Shown here: positions 8,154-46,484 of the stretch, piece by piece
Position numbering within the stretch: the stretch's first letter is position 1
Layout of the letters: each line of letters opens with the position of its first letter
Source of the DNA: Candidatus Poribacteria bacterium
GTDB taxonomy: Bacteria > Poribacteria > WGA-4E > WGA-3G
Direction of reading: 5' to 3'
Assembly: GCA_965214095.1 (NCBI GenBank)
Contig: OZ243938.1
Location: forward strand, 2,496,001-2,560,000
DNA: 64,000 bases
Translations under genes and position numbers: made by a program
The notes under the pieces: generated by a model
What the model was told of the DNA's origin: nothing
The model's input: the letters and a program-made list of their open reading frames with translations, nothing else
Databases searched by the model: none

Positions 8154-9002
8154 ATGAAAATTGGACTGATCTCAGACTTGCATACTGATTCTACTGATGC
8201 AAATAGGGCAATCGTTCCCCACATTATCAACGTTGTTAGAAATGCTAATCTTGATGTTTTTGTCCTTGCAGGTGATATAACCCCCAACTTATCTGAATTT
8301 TACGAAATACTCGGTGAATTTGCTAATGCAGATTTGACCTGCCAGAAGTTGTTTGTACCGGGAAACCATGATATTTGGGTCGGTAAAAATGCAAACATGA
8401 CCAGTGAACAAAAATGTGGTGTAATTTCAGAAATATGTCAAGACCATGGGTTTCATTCCCTTATAGATACACCTTATGTGGTTGATAAGATAGGTTTCTG
8501 CGGTACAATCGGTTGGTATGATTATACGTTTGCTTCGGATGCGATTGACTATTCAACTGAACAGTATGCGGAAAAACAGTTGATGAGATCAGTCTGGAGC
8601 GATAAACTATATGCGAAATGGAGTGATACAGACGAGAATATAGCACACCGATTTGAGAAAGAACTTGAGCAACAGATCCATTCTGTAAAGAACACAGTGC
8701 AACATATCATCGTTGTGACGCATCACGTTCCTTTTCGTGAGTGTATACGGTATCGTGGGGAATTGCCTTGGGATTATTTCCGTGCGTTTATGGGAAGTGA
8801 AGGTCTTGGCAGGATATGTTTACAGGAACCGTTGGTCTCACACATCCTCTTTGGTCACACACATTATGTTGTCAACCAACAGGTTGAGAACGTTAGGGCA
8901 ATCTGTGCACCAATCGGTTATCTGCATGAAATACCATTAGAAGAACTTCAGGCTTTTGCTGAACAAAGATTTACCTGTTTCTCTTTATCAAATGAATCCT
9001 AA
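8154..9002 (+). CDS. Calcineurin-like metallophosphoesterase
   Basis: DLH, GD, GNHD, HH and GHTH motifs. Confidence 0.9.
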   Translation: MKIGLISDLHTDSTDANRAIVPHIINVVRNANLDVFVLAGDITPNLSEFYEILGEFANADLTCQKLFVPGNHDIWVGKNANMTSEQKCGVISEICQDHGFHSLIDTPYVVDKIGFCGTIGWYDYTFASDAIDYSTEQYAEKQLMRSVWSDKLYAKWSDTDENIAHRFEKELEQQIHSVKNTVQHIIVVTHHVPFRECIRYRGELPWDYFRAFMGSEGLGRICLQEPLVSHILFGHTHYVVNQQVENVRAICAPIGYLHEIPLEELQAFAEQRFTCFSLSNES

Positions 9003-9026
9003 AAAAGAAATATACAGGAGAACATA

Positions 9027-9386
9027 ATGGATATAACGTTAACAAATAGTAACGAAGCTGGAGCACTTGAATTTCCATGGGGTGCAATAAAATGGTTATG
9101 TAACGATCAGATTGATCCAGAAGCAGAGATGACATTCGGTGTTGTCTACATTAATGCAGGTGAAGGAAATCCCACCCATTACCATCCGAACTGTGAGGAG
9201 TTGATCTATGTGTTATCTGGTGAATGCGACCATAAATTGGGAGATGAGACAATTCCGCTCAGACCCGGTATGATGTTGCGTATTCCGCGCAACGTCAAAC
9301 ACAATGCTGTCAACACAGGATGGCAACCCGTGACGATGATTATCTGCTATTCTGACGCTGATAGACAGACCGTTTTCTGTGAATAA
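9027..9386 (+). CDS. Cupin domain protein
   Basis: HYHPNCEE and PRNVKH cupin motifs. Confidence 0.88.
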   Translation: MDITLTNSNEAGALEFPWGAIKWLCNDQIDPEAEMTFGVVYINAGEGNPTHYHPNCEELIYVLSGECDHKLGDETIPLRPGMMLRIPRNVKHNAVNTGWQPVTMIICYSDADRQTVFCE

Positions 9387-9405
9387 GGAGAGGATGTGAT
9401 ACATT

Positions 9406-10095
9406 ATGTCTGAAGAAACAAGGTGCAAAGTAAAAATCTGCGGCATAACATCAATCCACGATGCATGTCTTGCTGCTGATGCTGGTGCAGATTACATCGG
9501 TGTATTGGTTGACGTTACAGCATCTGAACGAACGATGAAAACGACACAAGCAGTAGAAATCGCAAGTGGTAGTCCTATTCCAACGGTATTGTTGCTATAC
9601 AACCGCACAACATCCGATATACAAGACGCAGTCTCACAAATACAACCTTTTGCGGTGCAACTGCTTGGACAGGAAACACCTGAACAGGTTGAGGAACTCA
9701 AACGTGATGCCACATGTCAATTCTGGAAATCTGTCTATCTCCCTGCAGGAAGTCCAGAAAATGTTGATAGATCAGCAGTACATGCACAAATGCAAGCATA
9801 CTGCAATGCTGGTGCGGATTATCTCCTGTTTGATACAGTTGACATTAGCGTAAATCCACCTCGCTATGGTGGTACGGGTAAAAGATATGATTGGGGACTT
9901 GCTGCAGAACTTATTTCTGAAAGTCCATTGCCTGTTTTCTTAGCGGGAGGGATTCGTCCCAATAATGTTAAAGCTGCTATTGAAAACATAAACCCTTACG
10001 GGATAGATCTCTGTTCTGGTGTAGAAGCATCAAAAGGTGTTAAAGACAAACAAAAACTTGATCACCTTATGGAACAAGTGGGAAATACCAATTGA
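9406..10095 (+). CDS. trpF: Phosphoribosylanthranilate isomerase-like protein
   Basis: VKICGIT, GADYIG, GGTG..DW, LAGGI, IDLCSGVE. Confidence 0.85.
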   Translation: MSEETRCKVKICGITSIHDACLAADAGADYIGVLVDVTASERTMKTTQAVEIASGSPIPTVLLLYNRTTSDIQDAVSQIQPFAVQLLGQETPEQVEELKRDATCQFWKSVYLPAGSPENVDRSAVHAQMQAYCNAGADYLLFDTVDISVNPPRYGGTGKRYDWGLAAELISESPLPVFLAGGIRPNNVKAAIENINPYGIDLCSGVEASKGVKDKQKLDHLMEQVGNTN

Positions 10096-10232
10096 AAGAA
10101 TGTGGGTTTCAATTCATAAAACTCTTGAAATCAGACAGGATAATAAGATATACTGATAGCGTGTTTACGATGTGAAAAACGCGAATTTCCTGAGTATATT
10201 ACAAACTATTTTCATAACCTAAGGAGACTTTC

Positions 10233-11000
10233 ATGAAGATTAATGCATTTCAGTTGATTATTATATTTCTTATTATAGGCGTAATTTCTATTTTCGCACC
10301 TTCTGTGGTTCTTGCAGATGCACACGAGACGGAAGGTGAGATGGCACCCGAAGCCGAAGCAATGGAAGAAAAACCGGGTGTGTCAGGATGGTTCCAGATT
10401 GACATTGATAGTTTAGGCAGCTATTTCTTGATTGGCGCGAGCCATCCAGTCGGTGGTATCTCAATCGCTTCAAATATTTATGTAAATGAAAAACACGACT
10501 ATAATTTTGTAGATGGTAGTCACAGTCACAGATACTTAGGTGAATTTGATCTCGGCGTGACAGTTCCTGTTGTATCTTCTGATAGTTTATCATTAGCATT
10601 GCAGCCGATGGTAGGTATTGGTTTCGATTATACTGGAGCAGATGGACCTCATGCACTTTATCCACAGGTTTTTGCTTTCCTTAATGCAGGTGATTTCTTC
10701 CTCTTCCACTGGACCATCAGTACGTTCTATTCCATATTTGAGGAAGATAGTATTGATGAATTATACAATCGAACTTATCTTACCTATTCTCTGAATGATA
10801 CGATTGCAATTGGACCTCAGGTTGAATCAGTTCTCGGCCTTGGAGAAATGGGGGACTTGTGGGCATTCAATTTGGGGGCACGTCTCAATATCGCCTACGG
10901 CACAGCGAATTCGCTTGGAATATATGTCGGTTATGAAACAAAGAAAGGTGATGATGAAACGGGACTTACTGGTAGAATGAACTTTACCCGTTTCTGGTAG
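10233..11000 (+). CDS. Putative outer-membrane beta-barrel protein (paralog 1)
   Basis: Signal peptide, alternating amphipathic strands, C-terminal Trp (RMNFTRFW). Colinear with 12784-13521. Confidence 0.7.
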   Translation: MKINAFQLIIIFLIIGVISIFAPSVVLADAHETEGEMAPEAEAMEEKPGVSGWFQIDIDSLGSYFLIGASHPVGGISIASNIYVNEKHDYNFVDGSHSHRYLGEFDLGVTVPVVSSDSLSLALQPMVGIGFDYTGADGPHALYPQVFAFLNAGDFFLFHWTISTFYSIFEEDSIDELYNRTYLTYSLNDTIAIGPQVESVLGLGEMGDLWAFNLGARLNIAYGTANSLGIYVGYETKKGDDETGLTGRMNFTRFW

Positions 11001-11010
11001 CAAAAATTTG

Positions 11011-11043
11011 AATAGAGGCGCGGTTTTCCATCGCGTCTCTATT
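11011..11043. terminator. Hairpin between convergent genes
   Basis: AATAGAGGCGCG...CGCGTCTCTATT. Confidence 0.6.
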
Positions 11044-12469
11044 TGCTTAATAGATAAATATGTATCGTCCTATCCTTAGCCCGTGAGAATGCAGGGAATG
11101 TCTCTACCATGCGTCCTCTCTGACGAATCCAATTACGGACTGCCTTATCCGCATCAAAAACGTTAAAATTTGCAACGTCAACGATAAACCACAGACGTTC
11201 CATCTGAGCAGATTCCCACTTCTCTTCAAAACCTTCCTTATCATCTAACAACTCTCCAACATAAACTATTTCCATTTCCATTTCCGGCAGATAAAATACT
11301 CCCATTCGCGGTTCCGAAAGGACTATCTTATCTGTTGATTGCTTCTGCATTTCAACAAATTCGAATGCTTCTCTCCATTTAGGTCGCCCACCATTTTCAT
11401 TTTGATAATAGAGATAATCCTGTGATAACAACACAAGGATAAGCAGAGAAGGTAAAAGTGCTTTAAATAGATTGTGTCTGTTTGAACCCATAGCATCCCA
11501 GACTTGTTCACAGGTAACTGCAGCAAGAATGAAATACGCGGGAGTTGTCCAAAACAGATAATAACCAGCAACATTCTGCAGTTGAGATGCGATCAATAGT
11601 AGTCCCAAAGGCACACCCGCAAAACAGATTAAAAACCTTGTAGAACGGTTCTGCCAATTTACAATAGCACCAAAAAATGCAGCAACGGCAATCGGTATGC
11701 TAACTCCCTGAACGATTGTTAGTATCACATAAAGAGGACTACGTCCCCATTCATTGTGTCCCCATCCTGATGAAATATAACCACGAACTTGTGGTAGTAC
11801 CAGCATGAGCACAGGAACGGTAAACGGAAGGAAGAATATAATAAGATTGACTAACCTTTTTCTGTTACGATTTTCTAAGAGTTGCAATATGGCATAGGCA
11901 GCCAACGCAGGAACAATCGCTGTAGCCAAGAGATGGGATAAAATAAGACAGATACTGGAAAAGAGAGCACCTATAGTTAGAAGTGTTGAATCCTTATCAA
12001 AGGAGCGGTAGAAAAACCAAGCTGCCAACGCACCAAACAGAAAGGTGAGGATGTATGAACGCGCATTTTGCGACCAGAACAGATGCCAGTTTGACAAGGC
12101 AACAAAAACCGATGCAAATAAACCAACTCTATTGTTGTATAAAGTTTTACCCAAACTAAAGACTATCGGTATTGATATAATACCCACGATACAGAAGATA
12201 AGACGACTATTCCACTCACTACCTCCATCAAATATAAAAGACAGGTTTTCACCCAAAATTACAGAAAACTTCGCTGCAATATAAGGAATTGGATTAATAG
12301 GAGAATTATTGAGAGAGAAAGCTTTTGCATCAAGTACGGTAAGCACTTCATCAATCCAAAAACTCCACTTACCAAGATGCCAAAATCGTAGGAGTGCACC
12401 GATACTGACGATACAGACAAGTAATATATGCTTATTTTTTAGGCAGTTTTGTGATGAAAATTTCAGCAT
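11039..12469 (-). CDS. GT-C (ArnT/PMT family 39-like) membrane glycosyltransferase
   Basis: LRFWHLGKWSFWIDE, SRL, WSQNARSY, many TM segments. Confidence 0.82.
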   Translation of the reverse strand: MLKFSSQNCLKNKHILLVCIVSIGALLRFWHLGKWSFWIDEVLTVLDAKAFSLNNSPINPIPYIAAKFSVILGENLSFIFDGGSEWNSRLIFCIVGIISIPIVFSLGKTLYNNRVGLFASVFVALSNWHLFWSQNARSYILTFLFGALAAWFFYRSFDKDSTLLTIGALFSSICLILSHLLATAIVPALAAYAILQLLENRNRKRLVNLIIFFLPFTVPVLMLVLPQVRGYISSGWGHNEWGRSPLYVILTIVQGVSIPIAVAAFFGAIVNWQNRSTRFLICFAGVPLGLLLIASQLQNVAGYYLFWTTPAYFILAAVTCEQVWDAMGSNRHNLFKALLPSLLILVLLSQDYLYYQNENGGRPKWREAFEFVEMQKQSTDKIVLSEPRMGVFYLPEMEMEIVYVGELLDDKEGFEEKWESAQMERLWFIVDVANFNVFDADKAVRNWIRQRGRMVETFPAFSRAKDRTIHIYLLSK

Positions 12470-12624
12470 TTTTACCAGAAACCAATCTGTATAAACTATG
12501 GTATATCGCTATCTGTATATAGTTTAGAGATAAAATCTTATGAAAGGGGATACATAAGGATAAAACTACTGTTTATCTTATCTATAAGACATCTCAACAT
12601 AGTAAAATACCCTTATACGCTTAA

Positions 12625-12641
12625 TTGGCACACATATTGCT
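12625..12641 (+). promoter_or_regulatory. sigma54 (-24/-12) promoter upstream of the porin-amt genes
   Basis: TTGGCAC-ACATA-TTGCT, an exact match to TGGCAC-N5-TTGCW. Confidence 0.82.
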
Positions 12642-12783
12642 TTAACACAAGCAGTGCAACTAAGCACAGATTTTATCATAGGTTGATGTCAGAATCAAGC
12701 ATAAGCGTTCACAAACTGGCATAAACTCTCTTTTTGCACGATGAAAATACGTGCTGGAATTAAATAAATCTAAGGAGATTTAA

Positions 12784-13521
12784 ATGAAAATTAAAGCATT
12801 TTGGTTACCTGTATTACTTGCAATAGTTGGTATGCTCGCAGTTGGTAGCGTTCCGATGGTTTACGCTGACGCACACGGAGCGGGTGAAGAGATGGAAATG
12901 GAAATGGAAGAGGAATCAGGTATTGGCGGTTGGTTCCGTACCGATACTGATAGTCTTGGAACACAAATCTGGTTTGGTGGTAGTTATCCTGCTGGAAGTG
13001 TATCTATAGATAGCGACATATATGTTGTTGGAACTTTCGCAGAATTCGACCTTGGAATTGGAATTCCAGTTGTTGATGACGAATCAATGTCACTTACTTT
13101 CCTGCCGATGGTAGGTATTGGATTTGATTATGCATCAGCGAACGGTCCTAATTCTATAATTGCACCGCAGCTGTTTACTTATCTTACTGCTGGGTCCATC
13201 TATTTTGAATCTTGGATTCAAGGCTTCTTCAATACTTCATTTGATTATGGAGATGATTCATTATATACACGAGATTTTATCCTCTATTCAGTGACGGATA
13301 ATATCGCTATCGGTCCACAGGTAGAAGTTAGTCTCACCCTAAGTGGTTTAGAGGAAGAAACCGAAACAGGTTTGAGTAGTTTGGTAGTTGGTGGACGGAT
13401 CAATATGGCTTACGGTGAAAACAATACGCTCGGTCTGTTTGTCGGTCTTGAAACCCAAATGGAAGAAGATTCGGAAGATTCAGGACTTACCGGTAGAATG
13501 ACATTTGTTCGTACTTGGTAG
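12784..13521 (+). CDS. Putative outer-membrane beta-barrel protein (paralog 2), upstream of amt
   Basis: Signal peptide and C-terminal RMTFVRTW. Shares GWF..D.DSLG, EFDLG, PMVGIGFDY, IAIGPQVE and GLTGRM with paralog 1. Confidence 0.72.
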   Translation: MKIKAFWLPVLLAIVGMLAVGSVPMVYADAHGAGEEMEMEMEEESGIGGWFRTDTDSLGTQIWFGGSYPAGSVSIDSDIYVVGTFAEFDLGIGIPVVDDESMSLTFLPMVGIGFDYASANGPNSIIAPQLFTYLTAGSIYFESWIQGFFNTSFDYGDDSLYTRDFILYSVTDNIAIGPQVEVSLTLSGLEEETETGLSSLVVGGRINMAYGENNTLGLFVGLETQMEEDSEDSGLTGRMTFVRTW

Positions 13522-13531
13522 TTAATTGTAT

Positions 13532-13610
13532 AAAAACAGCAACCGTGCTGTTTTATCTATAGAATACATCGCGAATCTATGGTATACAACACTATTATGG
13601 ATTCGCGATG
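13532..13610 (+). terminator. Two intercistronic hairpins
   Basis: AAAACAGC-aaccgt-GCTGTTTT, then CATCGCGAATC...GATTCGCGATG. Confidence 0.6.
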
Positions 13611-13695
13611 AAACAATATATCATTCAACGTATAACATCTCTCAGTTCTTCAAAGTATTAAAAAGCAGTTTTATTGAAAATATAGGAGATATTAA

Positions 13696-15075
13696 ATGAC
13701 AAAAAAGGTTATTGTAACAATCTTTGTCCTCACCTGCTTGGTTAGTATTAACGTCTTTGCTCTCAACGGGTTGATAGAAGGTGATGACGGAACACTCACA
13801 AAGGTTGAGGATTCAAAGTATATGGGAGACACACTATGGGTGCTGGTCGCTGCATTTCTTGTATTCTTTATGCAGGCTGGTTTCGCTATGGTGGAGTCTG
13901 GGTTCACACGGGCAAAAAATGCTGTTAACATTCTCATGAAAAACTTGATGGACTTCTCAATGGGGTCAATCGCTTATTGGGCAATCGGCTTTGCAATAAT
14001 GTTCGGTGCGGGTAATGCGTTCATGGGAACAAGTGGTTGGTTTGTTCCTTCCGAAGAACTTTCTGCTGGCGCAGCAGCCAGTTCCAGTGTGTTTAGTTCG
14101 TTAGAATGGAGTTCTGTGCCAACCTATGCAGCGTGGTTATTCCAACTTGTATTCGCCGCAACAGCAGCAACTATCGTTTCTGGTGCAATGGCAGAACGGA
14201 CACAGTTCAAGAGTTATCTTATTTATAGTGTATTTATCACAGGTCTCATCTATCCCGTAGTCGGTCACTGGGTTTGGGGTGGCGGTTGGTTATCAAGTTT
14301 AGGTATGTCTGACTTTGCTGGTTCAACCGTTGTTCATTCAACAGGTGGTTGGCTTGCATTGACAGGTGCTATCGTCTTAGGGCCACGTCTTGGCAAATAT
14401 GATGGCGAAGGCAAACCGAGACCGATTGCTGGTCACAATCTACCACTTGCAGCACTCGGTGTCTTTATTCTCTGGCTCGGTTGGTTCGGATTCAATCCGG
14501 GTAGTCAGATGGGGGCAGATGCATTAGATATTTCCAAAATTGCAGTTACAACGAATATCGCAGCTGCAGCAGGTGCTATTACGGCAATGATTACCGCTTG
14601 GATAATGCTTGGTAAACCCGATGCAGGTATGTCGCTCAACGGTGCCCTCGCAGGGTTGGTAACTATTACCGCAGGTTGTGCTTCTGTTAGTCCGACATCC
14701 GCTGCGATAATGGGAGCAATTGGTGGAATCGTCGTTGTTCTAAGCGTCTTGTTGATTGAAAATCTACGTATTGATGATCCGGTCGGTGCTATTTCAGTTC
14801 ACGGAACGTGTGGCGCATTAGGCACACTACTCCTTGGATTCTTTGATAGTTCATCCGGAGTTTTCTTTGGCGGTGGATTTGAACTTCTATGGGCACAGTT
14901 CGTTGGTGTCGTTGCTGTTTTGGCATGGTGTCTCGTTACAGGCTTTATCCTCTTCTATGCAATCAAAGCAGCCACAGGCTTACGTGTTACACAAGAGCAA
15001 GAACAAGCTGGACTTGACTATGAAGAACATGGTGCAAGTGCATATCCAGACTTCAATGTCTCTTCAATACGTTAG
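13696..15075 (+). CDS. amt: Ammonium transporter (FFMQAGF / Amt1-type)
   Basis: FFMQAGFAMVESG, DFAGSTVVH, WFGFNPGS, DDPVGAISVHG. Confidence 0.96.
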   Translation: MTKKVIVTIFVLTCLVSINVFALNGLIEGDDGTLTKVEDSKYMGDTLWVLVAAFLVFFMQAGFAMVESGFTRAKNAVNILMKNLMDFSMGSIAYWAIGFAIMFGAGNAFMGTSGWFVPSEELSAGAAASSSVFSSLEWSSVPTYAAWLFQLVFAATAATIVSGAMAERTQFKSYLIYSVFITGLIYPVVGHWVWGGGWLSSLGMSDFAGSTVVHSTGGWLALTGAIVLGPRLGKYDGEGKPRPIAGHNLPLAALGVFILWLGWFGFNPGSQMGADALDISKIAVTTNIAAAAGAITAMITAWIMLGKPDAGMSLNGALAGLVTITAGCASVSPTSAAIMGAIGGIVVVLSVLLIENLRIDDPVGAISVHGTCGALGTLLLGFFDSSSGVFFGGGFELLWAQFVGVVAVLAWCLVTGFILFYAIKAATGLRVTQEQEQAGLDYEEHGASAYPDFNVSSIR

Positions 15076-15290
15076 TGATTTTTTAGAAAACCTTCAATAT
15101 TTAGGTTAAGGTTACAAATCAATTAGGTTCGCCCACAGGAAGTCTAACATATCCCTGAGTTATACATCCTGACATGTGGGCGTTCCTATCTTACTGTCTA
15201 CAGTATGCCATTGCAATTGCTTGATACCAACACCATGTTTTGATAAAATGCTTTACCAATACTTGAAGAATTGAGATTTTTGAGAGAAGT

Positions 15291-15393
15291 TATAGTGAAT
15301 TATAAATATAAGTTGACACTTTCGGCCCACGGTAGGCGAGGTTTCCTAACCTCGCCGATGCAGAGTGTTCAACTAATTTCAAAATCTACTATA
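15291..15393 (+). mobile_element. MITE family A, copy 3
   Basis: Near-identical to the other copies. Confidence 0.88.
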
Positions 15394-15507
15394 ACAAGTT
15401 AATCTAATTTTGCGTAATGAATAGGAAATGATAGATTGGCAATGTTGTCAATCTTTATGGTTACAATAAACAAGCAAAATTGCTTGTAAGAACAAAGGAG
15501 GCTAAAG

Positions 15508-16956
15508 ATGCCACAACGAAGTGCATCGCATTGGACAAAGAAGCGTTTTAGTTATCCACTAATTGGAACGCTTATACTAATATTACTAATATCTGGTGTG
15601 TTGAGTCTCATGTCAACTTATGATGTGTTTGCAGACCAACATGAAACAACTGAAATGGAGTCAGAAGCACCTTCTGAAGAGGCTGAGGATGAAGATGCCG
15701 CAGAAGCAGAATCTGCTATAGATTCTGGTGATACTGCGTGGATGCTTACCTCAACAGCCCTTGTGTTGTTTATGACTATTCCCGGACTTGCCCTTTTCTA
15801 TGGTGGACTTGTGCGTGTCCAAAATGTCCTCTCTGTATTGATGCAATGCTTTGCATTGACAGGGATAATCACGATTATTTGGATTGTCTGTGGGTATAGT
15901 CTGGCATTCAATACCGCAGGTATGGAGGCTGGGAAAATAACATTTAACTCATTCGTTGGTGGATTAGGAACGATTTTCTTGAAAGGTGTTACCACAAGCA
16001 GTGAAAGTGGAACTATCCCTGAAACCGTTTTTATTGTCTTCCAAATGACATTTGCAATTATCACCCCCGCATTGATTGCCGGTGCATTCGCAGAACGGAT
16101 GAAGTTTTCTGCTATGCTCATTTTCTCTGTTTTATGGTCAATAATCGTTTATGCACCACTATGCCACATGGCATGGGCAGGAGACGGCTCTTTGTTTGGT
16201 GATGTTATTGGAGCAAAAGACTTTGCGGGTGGTAACGTAGTTCATATTAATGCAGGTATCGCGGCATTAGTTGCTGCAATATTAGTCGGAAAACGTCTCG
16301 GTTATCAGACAACAGCAATGCCACCGCATAGTTTGACGATTACCGTCGTCGGTGCGTCAATGCTGTGGGTAGGTTGGTTTGGATTCAATGCTGGTAGTCA
16401 ACTTGCAGCCGATGGAGGTGCTGGTATGGCTATGCTTGTTACACAAGTTTCAACAGCTACCGCAGCAATTACATGGATGTTTATTGAATGGATCAAACAC
16501 GGTAAACCAAGTGTTCTCGGTATTGTTACGGGTGCTGTTGGCGGTTTGGTTGCAATCACACCTGCATCGGGTACAGTTGGTCCAATGGGGGCACTCGTTA
16601 TCGGATTCGCATCTGGAGCCGTCTGTTTCTGGGGTGCTACCAGTTTGAAATCGAAACTCGGTTATGACGATTCATTGGATGCGTTTGGTGTTCACGGGAT
16701 CGGTGGAATTGTCGGTGCACTCTTGACTGGTGTTTTCACAGCAAGCGCATTAGGCGGTGCTGGTATGGATGTCAGTATCGGTGTGCAGGTTTGGAAACAG
16801 TTCCTTAGCATTGTTATTACTATCGTTTGGAGTGGTCTGCTTTCATTTATTATCCTTAAAATCGTTGACGCTATTGTTGGCTTACGCGTTGAAGAGGATG
16901 ATGAACGGATGGGTCTTGACCTATCGCAGCACAATGAACGTGGTTATAACCTATAA
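15508..16956 (+). CDS. amtB: Ammonium transporter AmtB-type with acidic N-terminal extension
   Basis: FMTIPGLALFYGG, DFAGGNVVHINAG, WFGFNAGS, DDSLDAFGVHG. Confidence 0.96.
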   Translation: MPQRSASHWTKKRFSYPLIGTLILILLISGVLSLMSTYDVFADQHETTEMESEAPSEEAEDEDAAEAESAIDSGDTAWMLTSTALVLFMTIPGLALFYGGLVRVQNVLSVLMQCFALTGIITIIWIVCGYSLAFNTAGMEAGKITFNSFVGGLGTIFLKGVTTSSESGTIPETVFIVFQMTFAIITPALIAGAFAERMKFSAMLIFSVLWSIIVYAPLCHMAWAGDGSLFGDVIGAKDFAGGNVVHINAGIAALVAAILVGKRLGYQTTAMPPHSLTITVVGASMLWVGWFGFNAGSQLAADGGAGMAMLVTQVSTATAAITWMFIEWIKHGKPSVLGIVTGAVGGLVAITPASGTVGPMGALVIGFASGAVCFWGATSLKSKLGYDDSLDAFGVHGIGGIVGALLTGVFTASALGGAGMDVSIGVQVWKQFLSIVITIVWSGLLSFIILKIVDAIVGLRVEEDDERMGLDLSQHNERGYNL

Positions 16957-17037
16957 CAATTCTATACATTGTAGGGCGGGGTCTCTGTGCCCCGCCATGT
17001 TTTATCATACGGTTAGAATTTTGTCAGTCCAAACTCT

Positions 17038-17266
17038 TATGGTCAAAACCATAATTATTTACACACTACGGTAGGTTCGGTTTCCTAACCGAACCATGGG
17101 CGTCAATTTAGTGTAAATTAGGCGTTTTCCCCAGGACGGTAGGTTCGGTTTCCTAACCGAACCGGATCCTACGCGAGAACCTCTATGAAGGTATTTGGCA
17201 CAAAGACGGTTCGGTTAGGAAACCGCATCTACCGGGAGTGTGCACGGATTTTTACATTTCACTATA
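17038..17266. mobile_element. TA-ended MITE family B with three REPs and a relic IS4 end
   Basis: AAAACCATAATTATTTACA...TTTTTACATTTCACTATA shared with 47472-47608. CATGGGCGTCAATTTAGTG at 17095-17113. Confidence 0.8.
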
Positions 17267-17273
17267 AACTAAT

Positions 17274-19283
17274 CTATTCTTCCACTATCCTCCCGGCTAT
17301 TTCAGCATCTGGCATTATATCCTTCCTAACAAGTAGATTCTGTTTTACACCAAGATTTTTATATACATCTTCAATCCATGATGTGTTGAATACATCTCCA
17401 GTGTTATGAATAATCAAATTACGTGGTGCGACAAGTGTTCCTGCTGTGCGGAAATCGCCTACTCTACGCAAACTCGGAATCGGTAAATTATTCAGATATG
17501 CCTCTTGGTTCGTGTTTTCCAACTGTGCTGCATCAACGATGACGTTCTTAATATTCGTGAATCCTGCAGCAAGCAGTGCCCACAAACCTGCATTGCCTAT
17601 TCCGATGAGGCTAACCTCAGAAACATCGCCTCTGGTTGTAAAATAGAGCAGTGTTGTTACAATGTCCTGAATACGCAACGCTGCTGTTGTTCGGTTATAG
17701 GTAGTGAAGTAATTCGTCTCTTCTGATCTCTCATAGTCTCCATGTTCGCCTGTTTCAAACACATCAATAATTAGCACTTTACGATCAGCATTTATCAACT
17801 CTTTGATTATTGGTATAGGTTGTCCTGTTTCAGGATCAATCAATTTTTCTTTTCCTTCGGGATGCACAACGACAACAACTGGATCGTGTCCAACTAAAGG
17901 TTCGGTACGAAATAGAATGGCAGGAATTGCATCACCTACTCCTTCCCTTCCAATGACAACATGACGCGCAGAAAAGTCTGGGTGATAAGTTGTGGGAAAA
18001 GCACCTTCTGGTTCCACAAGTGTTATCTCACTGCTATCTGGCAAGTGTAATCCAAGGGAGTGTTGTAAAGCACTTCCCATTTCTTCTTTAAACTGATGAT
18101 GTTCATCTTCATTTGTCGGTTTACGTTTCTCAATTGCTTTGTTAGATAACATCGTCCAAGCACGTAGGATGTCGTCCTGTTTCAATGCATGCTCTGGTAT
18201 ATCTCGATCAGAGAAAACCAATAGATCTTCATCGGATTCAACTTCATAAGGTGCTTCTTTATATTTGGATGTGCCATCATCATTAAGAAACCATTTCGCG
18301 AACCATGCATATACTGCTTCACGGCTTTCTTTATTGTAGTTGTGTTCTGCGTCTACTTGAACTTGATGGACCTTATCTTCTGCATCAAAATGTGCATAAA
18401 TGCTTCGGATAGCGGGATACTCTACAGTTGGTGTATTTGATGTCCAATCACCTGTGCAAGACACAAGCAGTAGAGGACGTGGTGCCATCAATGCACCTAT
18501 CTCAAGATTACTGCCTTCCAACCGCAAATTCGGTGCGTTTTCACATAGACAACCACCCTGCATCGTTGCAGAAATCATATTGACAGGTGCTGAGACCTTG
18601 ATACGTTCATCAACAGCGGTTAGAATGAAAGTCTGTGATCCACCACCCGATGCGCCTGTACATCCGATACGTTCTTTGTCCACATCAGGCAAGTCTTGTA
18701 AGAAATCAATGGCACTTATCCCATTCTGAAGTTGCAGTCCCATTGCACTCAATCCCCATAATGCTTCTTTCGCACCACCATAACGATGTTCTATCTGCTT
18801 GCCGCTGTCGTTGTAACCTATCATATCATAAGCAAAGATGACATAACCCTGTTTAGCGAAATTGATACATCTGCCAGGAATTGAACCACGTTCTATATCT
18901 TCTAACCGTCCACGTCCCCAATGTCCATGTGGACTTACAATGGCTGGGAATGGTCCGGTTTTTCCTTTTGGACGATAGAGATTTCCTGTTGTGAAGAAAC
19001 CGGGGAAGGGTTCAAAATGCACCCTTTCTACGGTATAATCTTCCCGTTCAATTTTTCCAAAGATTTGTGCGTTGATAGGCGTTGGTTCATGGGATGGTAT
19101 CAAACCGTTTGCTACGCGTATCTGTTGCCGTAGCACTTCGGCTTTTCCAGTCCACTCCTCTTTGGTGTAGTTTGGAAAGGTGTAAGGAGTGTTTAGATCG
19201 CGTGATGCGGCACCCCGTGCATCGTTGACAGTTTGTGATTGGTCGGTGAAAACATGTGCAAGTTCGTGGTGTTGTTCAGCCAT
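17274..19283 (-). CDS. Acetylxylan-esterase-like alpha/beta hydrolase (tandem domains)
   Basis: PHGHW, GASGGG nucleophile elbow, GGCLCENAP, EHNY. Second domain is degenerate. Confidence 0.82.
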   Translation of the reverse strand: MAEQHHELAHVFTDQSQTVNDARGAASRDLNTPYTFPNYTKEEWTGKAEVLRQQIRVANGLIPSHEPTPINAQIFGKIEREDYTVERVHFEPFPGFFTTGNLYRPKGKTGPFPAIVSPHGHWGRGRLEDIERGSIPGRCINFAKQGYVIFAYDMIGYNDSGKQIEHRYGGAKEALWGLSAMGLQLQNGISAIDFLQDLPDVDKERIGCTGASGGGSQTFILTAVDERIKVSAPVNMISATMQGGCLCENAPNLRLEGSNLEIGALMAPRPLLLVSCTGDWTSNTPTVEYPAIRSIYAHFDAEDKVHQVQVDAEHNYNKESREAVYAWFAKWFLNDDGTSKYKEAPYEVESDEDLLVFSDRDIPEHALKQDDILRAWTMLSNKAIEKRKPTNEDEHHQFKEEMGSALQHSLGLHLPDSSEITLVEPEGAFPTTYHPDFSARHVVIGREGVGDAIPAILFRTEPLVGHDPVVVVVHPEGKEKLIDPETGQPIPIIKELINADRKVLIIDVFETGEHGDYERSEETNYFTTYNRTTAALRIQDIVTTLLYFTTRGDVSEVSLIGIGNAGLWALLAAGFTNIKNVIVDAAQLENTNQEAYLNNLPIPSLRRVGDFRTAGTLVAPRNLIIHNTGDVFNTSWIEDVYKNLGVKQNLLVRKDIMPDAEIAGRIVEE

Positions 19284-44490: not shown

Positions 44491-46410
44491 TTATTCCTTC
44501 TTCTCTTCATCTTCGTCAACAACTTCGTATTCAGCGTCAACGACATCCTCAGGTGGCGTATCTTCTGAAGGAACATCTTCAGGAGTAGCACCCTGTTCGG
44601 CATCGGCTGTCTGTTGATAAAGTTGCGCTGATGCCTCATGCCAAATCTGCATCAATTCATCTGTAGCAGATTTTATCTCCTCGTTGTTGTTTGTTTCAAG
44701 TGCCTGCTTGACCCGTTCAACACCTGCATTGACTTTTTCCTTCGTAGCATCATCCACCTTATCCCCAAATTCCTTCAGGTTTTTCTCAGTTTCATAGACT
44801 AAAGAGTCAGCACGGTTGCGAGTTTCAACTTCTTCCCGTTTCTGTTTATCCTCTTCCGCGTGTGATTCGGCATCTTTCACCATCTGATCAATTTCTGCAT
44901 CAGAGAGACCGGAGGAAGCAGTAATCGTGATTTTCTGCTCCTTACCTGTTGCCGTATCCTTAGCCGAGACATTCAGAATACCGTTGGCATCAATATCAAA
45001 GGTAACATCAATTTGCGGCATACCTCTGGGAGCGGGTGGAATATCGCTCAGACGGAATCGACCAATTGTTTTGTTATAAACTGCCTGCTCCCGTTCACCT
45101 TGAAGCACATGCACATCAACAGAAGTCTGGTTGTCTTCAGCAGTTGTGAACTTTTCAGATTTCTTTGTTGGAATGGTCGTATTCTTTTCTATCAACCGCG
45201 TAAAAATACCACCAAGTGTTTCAATACCAAGTGAAAGCGGGGTTACATCTAATAGAAGGATATCTTTTACTTCCTCATCACCAGCAAGCACACCACCCTG
45301 AATTGCTGCGCCTACAGCAACGACTTCATCAGGATTGACACCTTTATGCGGTTCTTTACCGAATAGTTGCTCCACTGCTTCTTGCACTTTCGGCATACGT
45401 GTCTGTCCACCTACAAGTATAACTTCGTCAATATCGGAGGGTTGCATCTCAGCATCAGCCAGTGCTTGTTTGCACGGTGTCAGAGAACGTTGAACTAACT
45501 CATCAGTGATTTGTTCAAGTTTCGCGCGTGTCAGTGTCAAATTGAGGTGCTTGGGACCACTTGCATCGCTTGTAATAAACGGCAGATTAATATCTGTTTG
45601 CGGCGTGCTGGAGAGTTCACATTTTGCTGTTTCTGCTGCCTCTTTAAGACGTTGGAGTGCCATCTGATCACCACGCAAGTCAATCCCTTGACTACTGAGA
45701 AACTCTTGTGCCATCCAATCAATAATCGTTTGGTCAAAATCATCACCACCGAGGTGAGTATCTCCGTTTGTGCTTTTCACTTCAAAAACACCATCACCGA
45801 TTTCCAAAATAGAAATATCAAACGTGCCACCACCAAGGTCGTAGACAGCGATTTTCTTGTCACCTTCATTTTGCAACCCATAAGCAAGTGAAGCAGCAGT
45901 CGGTTCGTTGATTATCCGTAACACTTCTAAACCGGCGATCTTACCGGAATCCGCTGTAGCTTGACGTTGGGAATCATTGAAGTAAGCAGGCACGGTGATA
46001 ACTGCTTGTGTAACTTCATTCCCAAGATATGCCTCCGCGGTTTCTTTCATTTTCCGCAGAACCATTGCTGAGATTTCTGGTGGAGAATACTCTTTACCAT
46101 CAATGTTAACAGCAACATCACCATCTTTATCACTTTTTAATTCATAAGGCACGCGGGAAGCATCATCCCCAAGTTCATTATATTTTCGTCCCATGAACCG
46201 TTTTATTGAAAAAATTGTATTTTCGGGATTTGTGATAGCTTGTCTTTTGGCTACTTGTCCGACCGGACGCTCACCCTCTTTCGTAAAACCGACAATTGAG
46301 GGAGTCGTCCGATTGCCTTCCGCGTTTTCAATAACCTTCGCATCGCCACTTTCTAAAACGGCAACGCATGAATTTGTCGTTCCTAAATCAATTCCAATTA
46401 CTTTACTCAT
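44491..46410 (-). CDS. dnaK: Hsp70 chaperone
   Basis: [32 protein letters not shown] tail. Start at MSKVIG. Confidence 0.98.
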
Positions 46411-46467
46411 TATTGTCTCCATCAGTATAATAAATATATAGTTTGTATAATTTGATAAAATTATAAG

Positions 46468-46484
46468 TGCAATTTCTGTGCCAA
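46468..46484 (-). promoter_or_regulatory. sigma54 promoter upstream of dnaK
   Basis: Minus-strand TTGGCAC-AGAAA-TTGCA, 57 bp before the ATG. Confidence 0.8.

Follow-up and report, generated by a model that had tools for sequence, protein, structure and literature searches.

Textbook descriptions of ammonium uptake end with Amt plus GlnK in the inner membrane, and to our knowledge there has been hardly any work on how NH4+ at nanomolar to micromolar concentrations passes the outer membrane. Genes for TorF proteins typically head sigma-54/NtrC-controlled (glnK-)amtB operons, and NlmA is a protein that we take to be a member of this TorF/Gcw_chp family. Another group of small barrels, KdgM, NanC and VhGalP, carries acidic sugars through a basic lumen. 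In the part of the report that concerns its induction, the nlmA-glnK-amtB operon of Herbaspirillum seropedicae is described as NtrC-dependent and 21-fold induced under nitrogen limitation (PMC3023670). The relevant parts of two further reports suggest that a porin admits ammonium: a BBP2 porin of Kuenenia that is induced by ammonium limitation (PMC7438415), and OmpU of Pelagibacter, which is induced by nitrogen limitation (PMC3870248). Here, we describe a locus of Candidatus Poribacteria in which betaB, a gene for a small predicted outer-membrane barrel, stands in front of two ammonium transporter genes. The locus lies on a 64,000-nucleotide stretch of contig OZ243938.1 (the window), from a 5.25 Mb genome that is 94% complete and whose relatives are all named Candidatus Poribacteria; betaB and its paralog betaA are our working names for the two barrel genes of the window.

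The gene order is betaA, a PMT_2-type glycosyltransferase gene that diverges from betaB, betaB itself, amt1, and an amtB-type gene (Table 1). A genome search found two Amt genes, both at this locus, and a search with a profile of the barrel family found two barrel genes, betaA and betaB, again both at this locus. The single PII gene of the genome (C1:4061039-4061356) adjoins glnA, 1.5 Mb away. The initial annotation had described a sigma-54 motif ahead of an exported protein of ~245 residues ending in Trp, followed by Amt1-type and AmtB-type transporters that both have the twin His, with a paralog of the exported protein 1.8 kb upstream behind a TTGAAA-N18-TATACT promoter candidate, and no GlnK gene at the locus. 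Each checkable detail of this description was confirmed, down to the T at 12625 that precedes the exact sigma-54 match. Its interpretation, that an outer-membrane channel family feeds Amt, is partly supported. We consider betaB a good candidate for the protein that lets ammonium through the outer membrane, and we lean, with modest confidence, towards reading it as a channel of this membrane that favours cations, is regulated by nitrogen and serves Amt.

We observed two exact matches to the sigma-54 motif TGGCAC-N5-TTGCW in the window, compared with 0.06 expected, and none of 100 shuffles reached two. One of the two is the betaB motif, and TGGCAC-N5-TTGC precedes betaB in 75 of 80 Poribacteria loci; four more loci have TGGCAT in its place, and the remaining locus has just 406 nt of upstream sequence. 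The conserved block around the motif extends to AATTGGCAC...TTGCTTTAA. A relaxed sigma-54 motif was found ahead of amt1 in none of 69 loci and ahead of amtB in none of 80, indicating that any sigma-54 control of the amt genes runs through betaB. The genome carries rpoN and eight strong PF00158 sigma-54 activator genes, two of which reach 479 and 471 bits with the NtrC model, below its cut-off of 558.6. A sigma-54-like motif, TGGCATAGACATTGCA, also lies ~118 nt upstream of the glnA-PII operon, which on sequence grounds would fit a nitrogen regulon that includes betaB-amt. Of the earlier proposal that one barrel copy is nitrogen-regulated and the other differently regulated, the second part holds in that the sigma-54 motif is conserved at betaB only, whereas nitrogen control of betaB is best described as probable. 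A search of positions 9900-17400 against Rfam (E <= 1) gave a chance-level match to an L13 leader outside the operon as its sole result, and so the 142-nt leader of betaB holds no known RNA element. A 12-mer common to the glnA and betaB upstream regions was considered as an activator site and rejected, as it overlaps the conserved start of the PMT_2 gene. Upstream of the motif, the stretch that runs from the PMT_2 start to the promoter contains arrays of the 7-nt repeat GTTATCA/GTTAGCA and paired CTGACAACTGA words in some clades (L042, L053, L065, L082 and other loci), but not in the clade of the window.

An Amt gene lies directly 3' of betaB in all 80 Poribacteria loci, with amt1 and then amtB in 69 and amtB alone in 11, and a PII gene was found in none of the 80 within the fetched flanks. 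These loci have in common a block of nine genes (metallophosphoesterase, cupin, trpF, betaA, PMT_2, betaB, amt1, amtB, hydrolase). The PMT_2 gene is a conserved neighbour, kept in 79 of the 80 loci, for which we claim no functional link to betaB. Across the phylum, the barrel family is present in 108 of 121 genomes: in 80/81 of the Poribacteria family that we label f1, mostly as two copies; in 8/9 of f2 and 18/19 of f3, mostly as one copy; in 1/3 of f4; and in 0/8 of f5-f8. Of five genomes checked from outside f1, four carry a gene for a 112-residue PII protein behind an Amt gene. One f2 genome (G019; loci L140/L145) has a divergent PMT_2 gene and a TGGCAT-N5-TTGCG motif, followed by amt1-amtB-glnK. 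Comparison of this genome with the 80 f1 loci indicates that the same locus occurs in two forms within one order, one with the barrel and without GlnK (f1), and the other with GlnK and without the barrel (f2). Candidate matches to a barrel remnant in the PMT_2-amt1 spacer of G019 (tblastn E 0.14 and 7.3) were not collinear and were rejected.

We also scanned metagenomes with distant members of the family, represented by 11 closer sequences. Two of the 28 loci recovered repeat the Poribacteria block; many of the other 26 are just 1-2 kb long. Three of these 26 pair the barrel with Amt: L103 carries PII, HPP, Amt, two further open reading frames (ORFs; one of them FlpD) and the barrel, L104 has AmtB divergent from the barrel, and L106 has the barrel and then Amt. 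In a quick tree of the family (Shimodaira-Hasegawa-like approximate likelihood ratio test [SH-aLRT] support, midpoint root), the three fall in separate places, two near the base and one within a high-GC clade.

The N-terminus of betaB is signal-peptide-like (...VPMVYA↓DAHG) and its C-terminus reads ...FVRTW. An AlphaFold2 model, made with an alignment of 28 sequences, has a predicted local distance difference test score of 82.6 and a predicted template modelling score of 0.73, and consists of a signal helix, a disordered stretch at residues 22-44, and 12 strands that span residues 48-244. A Foldseek search with this model returned outer-membrane barrels only. In a VIA structural search against representatives, the closest match was VhGalP (8xua; Z 17.9, root-mean-square deviation [rmsd] 2.9 over 179 residues), and further matches were KdgM (4pr7; Z 17.0), a COG4313 channel (16.4), intimin (15.9), NanC (2wjr; 15.8), FapF (15.6) and PcoB (14.6). 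The predicted model thus has the KdgM/NanC-type 12-stranded fold, with 161-179 residues aligned; that the protein is modelled as a barrel agrees with the initial annotation, which would have been refuted otherwise. The signal-like N-terminus, the 12 modelled strands and the C-terminal aromatic residue point to a location in the outer membrane, and the genome has nine matches to the Omp85/BamA family.

Mature betaB has 36 acidic residues and 5 basic ones, and net charge is negative in all 62 family members examined. When the strands were split into two registers, nearly all positions with conservation of 90% or more fell in the polar, presumably lumen-facing register, which holds 10 acidic, 4 basic and many aromatic residues. 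A disordered N-terminal tail, Asp-Ala-His and then Glu/Met-rich (DAHGAGEEMEMEMEEES), places 19 residues ahead of the barrel; in the 28 aligned sequences, His31 is invariant and Asp29 nearly so. The pattern A↓D-x-H-(E/D/G) also follows a signal-like N-terminus in at least 13 other exported proteins of the genome (e.g. DNHE, DSHD, DDHQ, DEHP, DQHA). In the window, A↓D-x-H occurs in betaA, betaB and the AmtB-type transporter, and the mature N-terminus would be X-X-His, often followed by acidic residues. Judged by eye, the pattern looks far above chance frequency in this genome. Its recurrence in the other exported proteins and in the AmtB-type transporter makes it look like a trait of the secretome and not of betaB specifically.

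A profile search of 1.84 billion representatives retrieved 159 family members at E <= 0.001, counted as representatives at 50% identity. In the distant members, Ala/Pro/Glu-rich linkers replace the Poribacteria tail and the proteins end in W or F; those with names are from Kofleriaceae, Polyangiaceae, Myxococcales and one cultured Sorangium. Neither betaA nor betaB matched a model in Pfam (E <= 0.01), the KdgM model included, or in NCBIfam (E <= 0.1), and none of 34 distant members matched the KdgM Pfam model at E <= 1. Likewise, the TorF/Gcw_chp models PF09694 and TIGR02001 did not match betaA or betaB, the Pfam model did not match the 34 distant members, and the one match to a TorF model in the whole genome scored 13.6 bits, away from this locus. 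Several distant members matched DUF6733 (PF20507), an uncharacterised and mostly Bacteroidota family, below its cut-off (best 25.2 bits, compared with 27). These weak matches were seen in 4 of 34 and then in 5 of 18 distant members, in the same region of the profile, with none for betaA or betaB. In a protein-language-model atlas, betaB is nearest to Bacteroidota clusters of DUF6733 (0.97, with 191 of 256 features shared), yet none of the barrel-family members tested reaches the DUF6733 cut-off. A search for DUF6733 found no match in this genome, and the same search gave none in control genomes either; the name is also absent from the literature searched. Based on the sub-threshold hidden Markov model matches and the nearness in language-model features, we conclude that the family is uncurated and at most a distant sister of DUF6733, in agreement with the earlier view that it is uncharacterised. 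Literature searches on TorF with amtB, and on a porin with an ammonium transporter under sigma-54, returned nothing relevant.

Both transporters combine PF00909 with the twin His of Amt/MEP/Rh proteins, presumably His168 and His318. The top model for Amt1 was TIGR00836 amt (444.1 bits, above cut-off), followed by the marine-subtype model TIGR03644 (434.8 bits, cut-off 514), and its His motifs, read in the sequence, are 'VVHSTGG' and 'SVHGTCG'. The top model for the AmtB-type protein was the AmtB model NF007947 (457 bits, cut-off 657), and alignment with E. coli AmtB (2nuu; E 3e-114) showed that the His of 'VVHINA' and that of 'FGVHG' are both kept. In one complete Poribacteria chromosome (locus L032), the AmtB-type gene is in two ORFs (8635-9096 and 9144-10052), maybe because of a frameshift or because the gene is broken.

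The hairpin past amtB is the strongest terminator-like site in positions 10000-17300, and betaB, amt1 and amtB are probably co-transcribed. The 174-nt spacer between betaB and amt1 has a minimum free energy of -43.4 kcal/mol (z -5.85). The betaB-amt spacers of the other loci are mostly also strongly folded and lack a T-tract; a few are 34-54 nt long and the others 87-604 nt, most of them 115-223 nt. In a mechanical scan, 14 of 81 rows had a terminator-like hairpin plus T-tract at some point of the spacer, and such a hairpin directly after the betaB stop is confined to the window and its close relatives L027 and L030. RNA contigs were available from four metatranscriptome runs of one study; these are pieces of relatives, 92-99% alike, from which transcript starts and levels cannot be read. 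A 1370-nt contig from the RNA library of a relative covers positions 12520-13896, beginning upstream of the sigma-54 motif and crossing betaB into amt1. Since DNA carry-over into RNA libraries is possible, expression of the relatives' locus is weakly indicated. The 105-nt repeat between amt1 and amtB has the deepest coverage of any piece across the four RNA libraries, with many different sequences flanking it, and for many of the RNA contigs it is all that they have in common. Its copies are ~92-98% identical among the matches listed, and the RNA contig of a relative that lacks the element skips positions 15283-15414.

Table 1. Features of the window, with coordinates counted from its first nucleotide
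Feature	Position	Strand	Details
Sigma-70-like promoter candidate of betaA, TTGAAA-N18-TATACT	10125..10154	+	10/12 consensus positions
betaA	10233..11000	+	255 aa; 41% identical to betaB, E 5e-61
PMT_2-type membrane glycosyltransferase	11039..12469	-	PF13231 E 4.8e-10; transcribed divergently from betaB
Sigma-54 (-24/-12) motif TGGCACACATATTGCT	12626..12641	+	exact; 142 nt ahead of betaB start codon
betaB	12784..13521	+	245 aa, exported, strongly acidic, modelled 12-stranded beta-barrel
betaB-amt1 spacer structures	13535..13610	+	short hairpin with T-rich tail 13535-13560; 18-bp perfect hairpin 13567-13610
amt1, marine-subtype-like ammonium transporter	13696..15075	+	PF00909 E 5.4e-129
Dispersed repeat like a miniature inverted-repeat transposable element	15289..15394	.	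105 nt, inverted ends; between amt1 and amtB; ~164 further genome matches
amtB-type ammonium transporter	15508..16956	+	PF00909 E 6.8e-117; acidic N-terminal extension …FADQHETTEMESE…
Intrinsic-terminator-like hairpin GGCGGGG…CCCCGCC + T run	16975..16996	+	19 nt past amtB stop; 8 pairs, 7 G-C
Dispersed repeat, ~170-200 nt	17037-17236		between amtB and convergent hydrolase; ~700 genome blastn matches
dnaK	44491-46422	-	NF001413, 1030 bits
Second exact sigma-54 motif of the window, TGGCACAGAAATTGCA	46468-46483	-	45 nt upstream of dnaK

The paralog betaA scores 347.5 bits on the family profile and has a His-rich insertion of 14 residues between strands 3 and 4. In the quick tree, betaA and the single-copy members from f2 and f3 form a group (SH-aLRT 100). 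In 13 of 52 rows, that of the window among them, the TTGAAA/TATACT hexamers recur ahead of betaA; sigma-70-like matches in the region number 13, compared with 18.1 in shuffles, i.e. fewer, and the betaA candidate is not significant alone. A relaxed sigma-54 motif was found ahead of betaA in one of 52 loci.

In the reading that we prefer, the signal peptide would be cleaved and betaB would form a small 12-stranded barrel of KdgM/NanC-like architecture, with mostly acidic and aromatic residues among the conserved positions of its lumen and a short acidic tail that extends into the periplasm. A betaB-amt1-amtB unit, headed by betaB, would be transcribed with sigma-54 and end at the terminator past amtB. 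Under nitrogen shortage, an NtrC-like activator would fire and the pore would be made together with the only two inner-membrane Amts, so that scarce NH4+ could cross both membranes; betaA may be an older, differently regulated paralog. A bolder version, which is possible but which we hold to be doubtful, is that the barrel family is a dedicated, cation-selective outer-membrane ammonium channel and the first of its kind to be defined, whose acidic and aromatic lumen and acidic periplasmic tail gather NH4+ for Amt, and whose gain at the head of the amt operon accompanied the loss of GlnK in one Poribacteria family. If this were true, ammonium entry would no longer be controlled by plugging Amt post-translationally but by regulating, at the level of transcription, access through the outer membrane.

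Several observations weigh against the view of betaB as a nitrogen-regulated channel for Amt. Sigma-54 serves several regulons in this genome, and a sigma-54 motif alone therefore does not imply nitrogen control. Strict motifs number 39 genome-wide, compared with 3.5 expected from composition; many lie inside WD40-repeat genes, and intergenic ones precede dnaK, groES and clpB (GroES and ClpB were identified by eye). The heat-shock chaperones of this Poribacterium may, as a separate matter, depend on sigma-54. In stacks anchored on the betaB motif, we found no activator site shared by all loci. Within the proposed unit, a hairpin with a T-rich tail follows betaB in the window, a sigma-70-like site lies ahead of amtB at 15221-15249, and RNA contigs break in the betaB-amt1 spacer in three of the four runs. 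The sister families f2 and f3 have amt-glnK without the barrel, and the 80 Poribacteria loci are kin and not independent cases, because the whole nine-gene block is syntenic. This synteny across the Poribacteria family, together with the presence of sigma-54 motifs ahead of chaperone genes, would also suit a barrel that is not a transport channel at all (an anchor, an enzyme or an envelope-stress protein) and that owes its place before amt to inheritance of the block; autotransporter domains, LpxR and OMPLA are also 12-stranded, with Z of 11-15. We regard such a role as improbable, however, since betaB has no passenger or catalytic domain, with just the short tail ahead of its barrel, its conserved polar residues point inward, its closest folds by Z are channels, and adjacency to Amt recurs outside Poribacteria.

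Loci in which the barrel is found away from Amt bear on what it might carry. Outside the block, only the three metagenome loci of the 26 carry Amt, although many of the 26 are too short to judge. In L107, L110 and L112 (GC 0.41), the barrel is part of an ABC-importer operon (ATPase, permease, barrel, NMT1/THI5-type binding protein, DAO, ThiG); in L113 and L118 it precedes a BBP2 porin; and no nitrogen genes were found at the barrel loci L097, L101 and L117. The betaA-like copies of f2 and f3 are away from amt in all three loci checked. Linkage of the homologs to amt, which had been anticipated, thus holds for the Poribacteria block and a few loci beyond it and breaks down elsewhere; a tie to Amt is not a feature of the whole family. 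These importer and porin loci, the position of betaA and the f2/f3 copies away from amt, and the substrate specificity of the channels with the nearest solved folds, whose solutes are quite different, would be expected if betaB were a small channel that is not specific for ammonium, from a family that serves various small solutes (amines, thiamine precursors, other cations) and is recruited beside whichever importer needs it. This explanation strikes us as rather unlikely, given that barrel and Amt are found paired at three separate places in the tree, that the lumen is conserved and strongly acidic, and that the promoter sits only ahead of the barrel gene in the amt unit. The arrangement in the ABC-importer operon may, in its own right, hint at an outer-membrane partner for the uptake of thiamine precursors. 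A further explanation is that betaB handles metal cations (Cu, Ni) through its X-X-His N-terminus and its Glu/Met-rich tail, in the manner of PcoB-type copper proteins, as might be suggested by the invariant His31, the nearly invariant Asp29, the composition of the tail, and the structural match to PcoB (7pge; Foldseek E 4e-6). Given that A↓D-x-H is common among the exported proteins of this genome, that relatives outside Poribacteria lack the motif, and that no metal genes lie near the locus, we consider a metal function very improbable. We retain, with modest confidence, the reading of betaB as an outer-membrane channel through which ammonium would pass on its way to Amt.

Poribacteria, which are abundant in sponges as uncultured symbionts, live on ammonium waste from their hosts, and the only Amt genes of this Poribacterium sit behind a barrel gene. 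Unrelated families of small barrels precede amt in different bacteria: NlmA in Herbaspirillum, and an uncurated family in Poribacteria and Myxococcota-like bacteria. That unrelated barrel families have independently been recruited ahead of amt suggests that the outer-membrane step of ammonium uptake matters.

The locus resembles and departs from several known systems. Porins of the OprP/PhoE type are 16- to 18-stranded barrels, compared with 12 modelled strands in betaB. The likeness to OprP/PhoE, and to the Kuenenia BBP2 porin as far as the report describes it, is that an outer-membrane pore would be induced together with the inner-membrane uptake of a scarce nutrient; unlike betaB, the BBP2 porin is not presented as co-operonic with Amt in the part of the report that deals with it (PMC7438415). 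Like betaB, which is small and monomer-like, the monomeric, substrate-specific porins KdgM, NanC and VhGalP are 12-stranded barrels of ~200 residues (Z 15.8-17.9, rmsd 2.8-3.6) whose genes adjoin the uptake genes that they serve. Unlike these proteins, to which it is 6-11% identical, betaB has no Pfam match, is strongly acidic, and is paired with Amt. The context of betaB is that of a TorF-type gene, at the head of an amt operon and behind a sigma-54 motif, but without glnK. As in nlmA-glnK-amtB, going by the relevant part of that report, a gene for a small exported or membrane protein heads an ammonium-transporter operon, with the role of this protein unproven in both cases; unlike nlmA-glnK-amtB, the Poribacteria operon has no glnK and has two Amt genes, and betaB matches neither of the two TorF models. 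We conclude that betaB follows the same logic as the NlmA operon by means of a different, or very distant, barrel family, and does so without GlnK.

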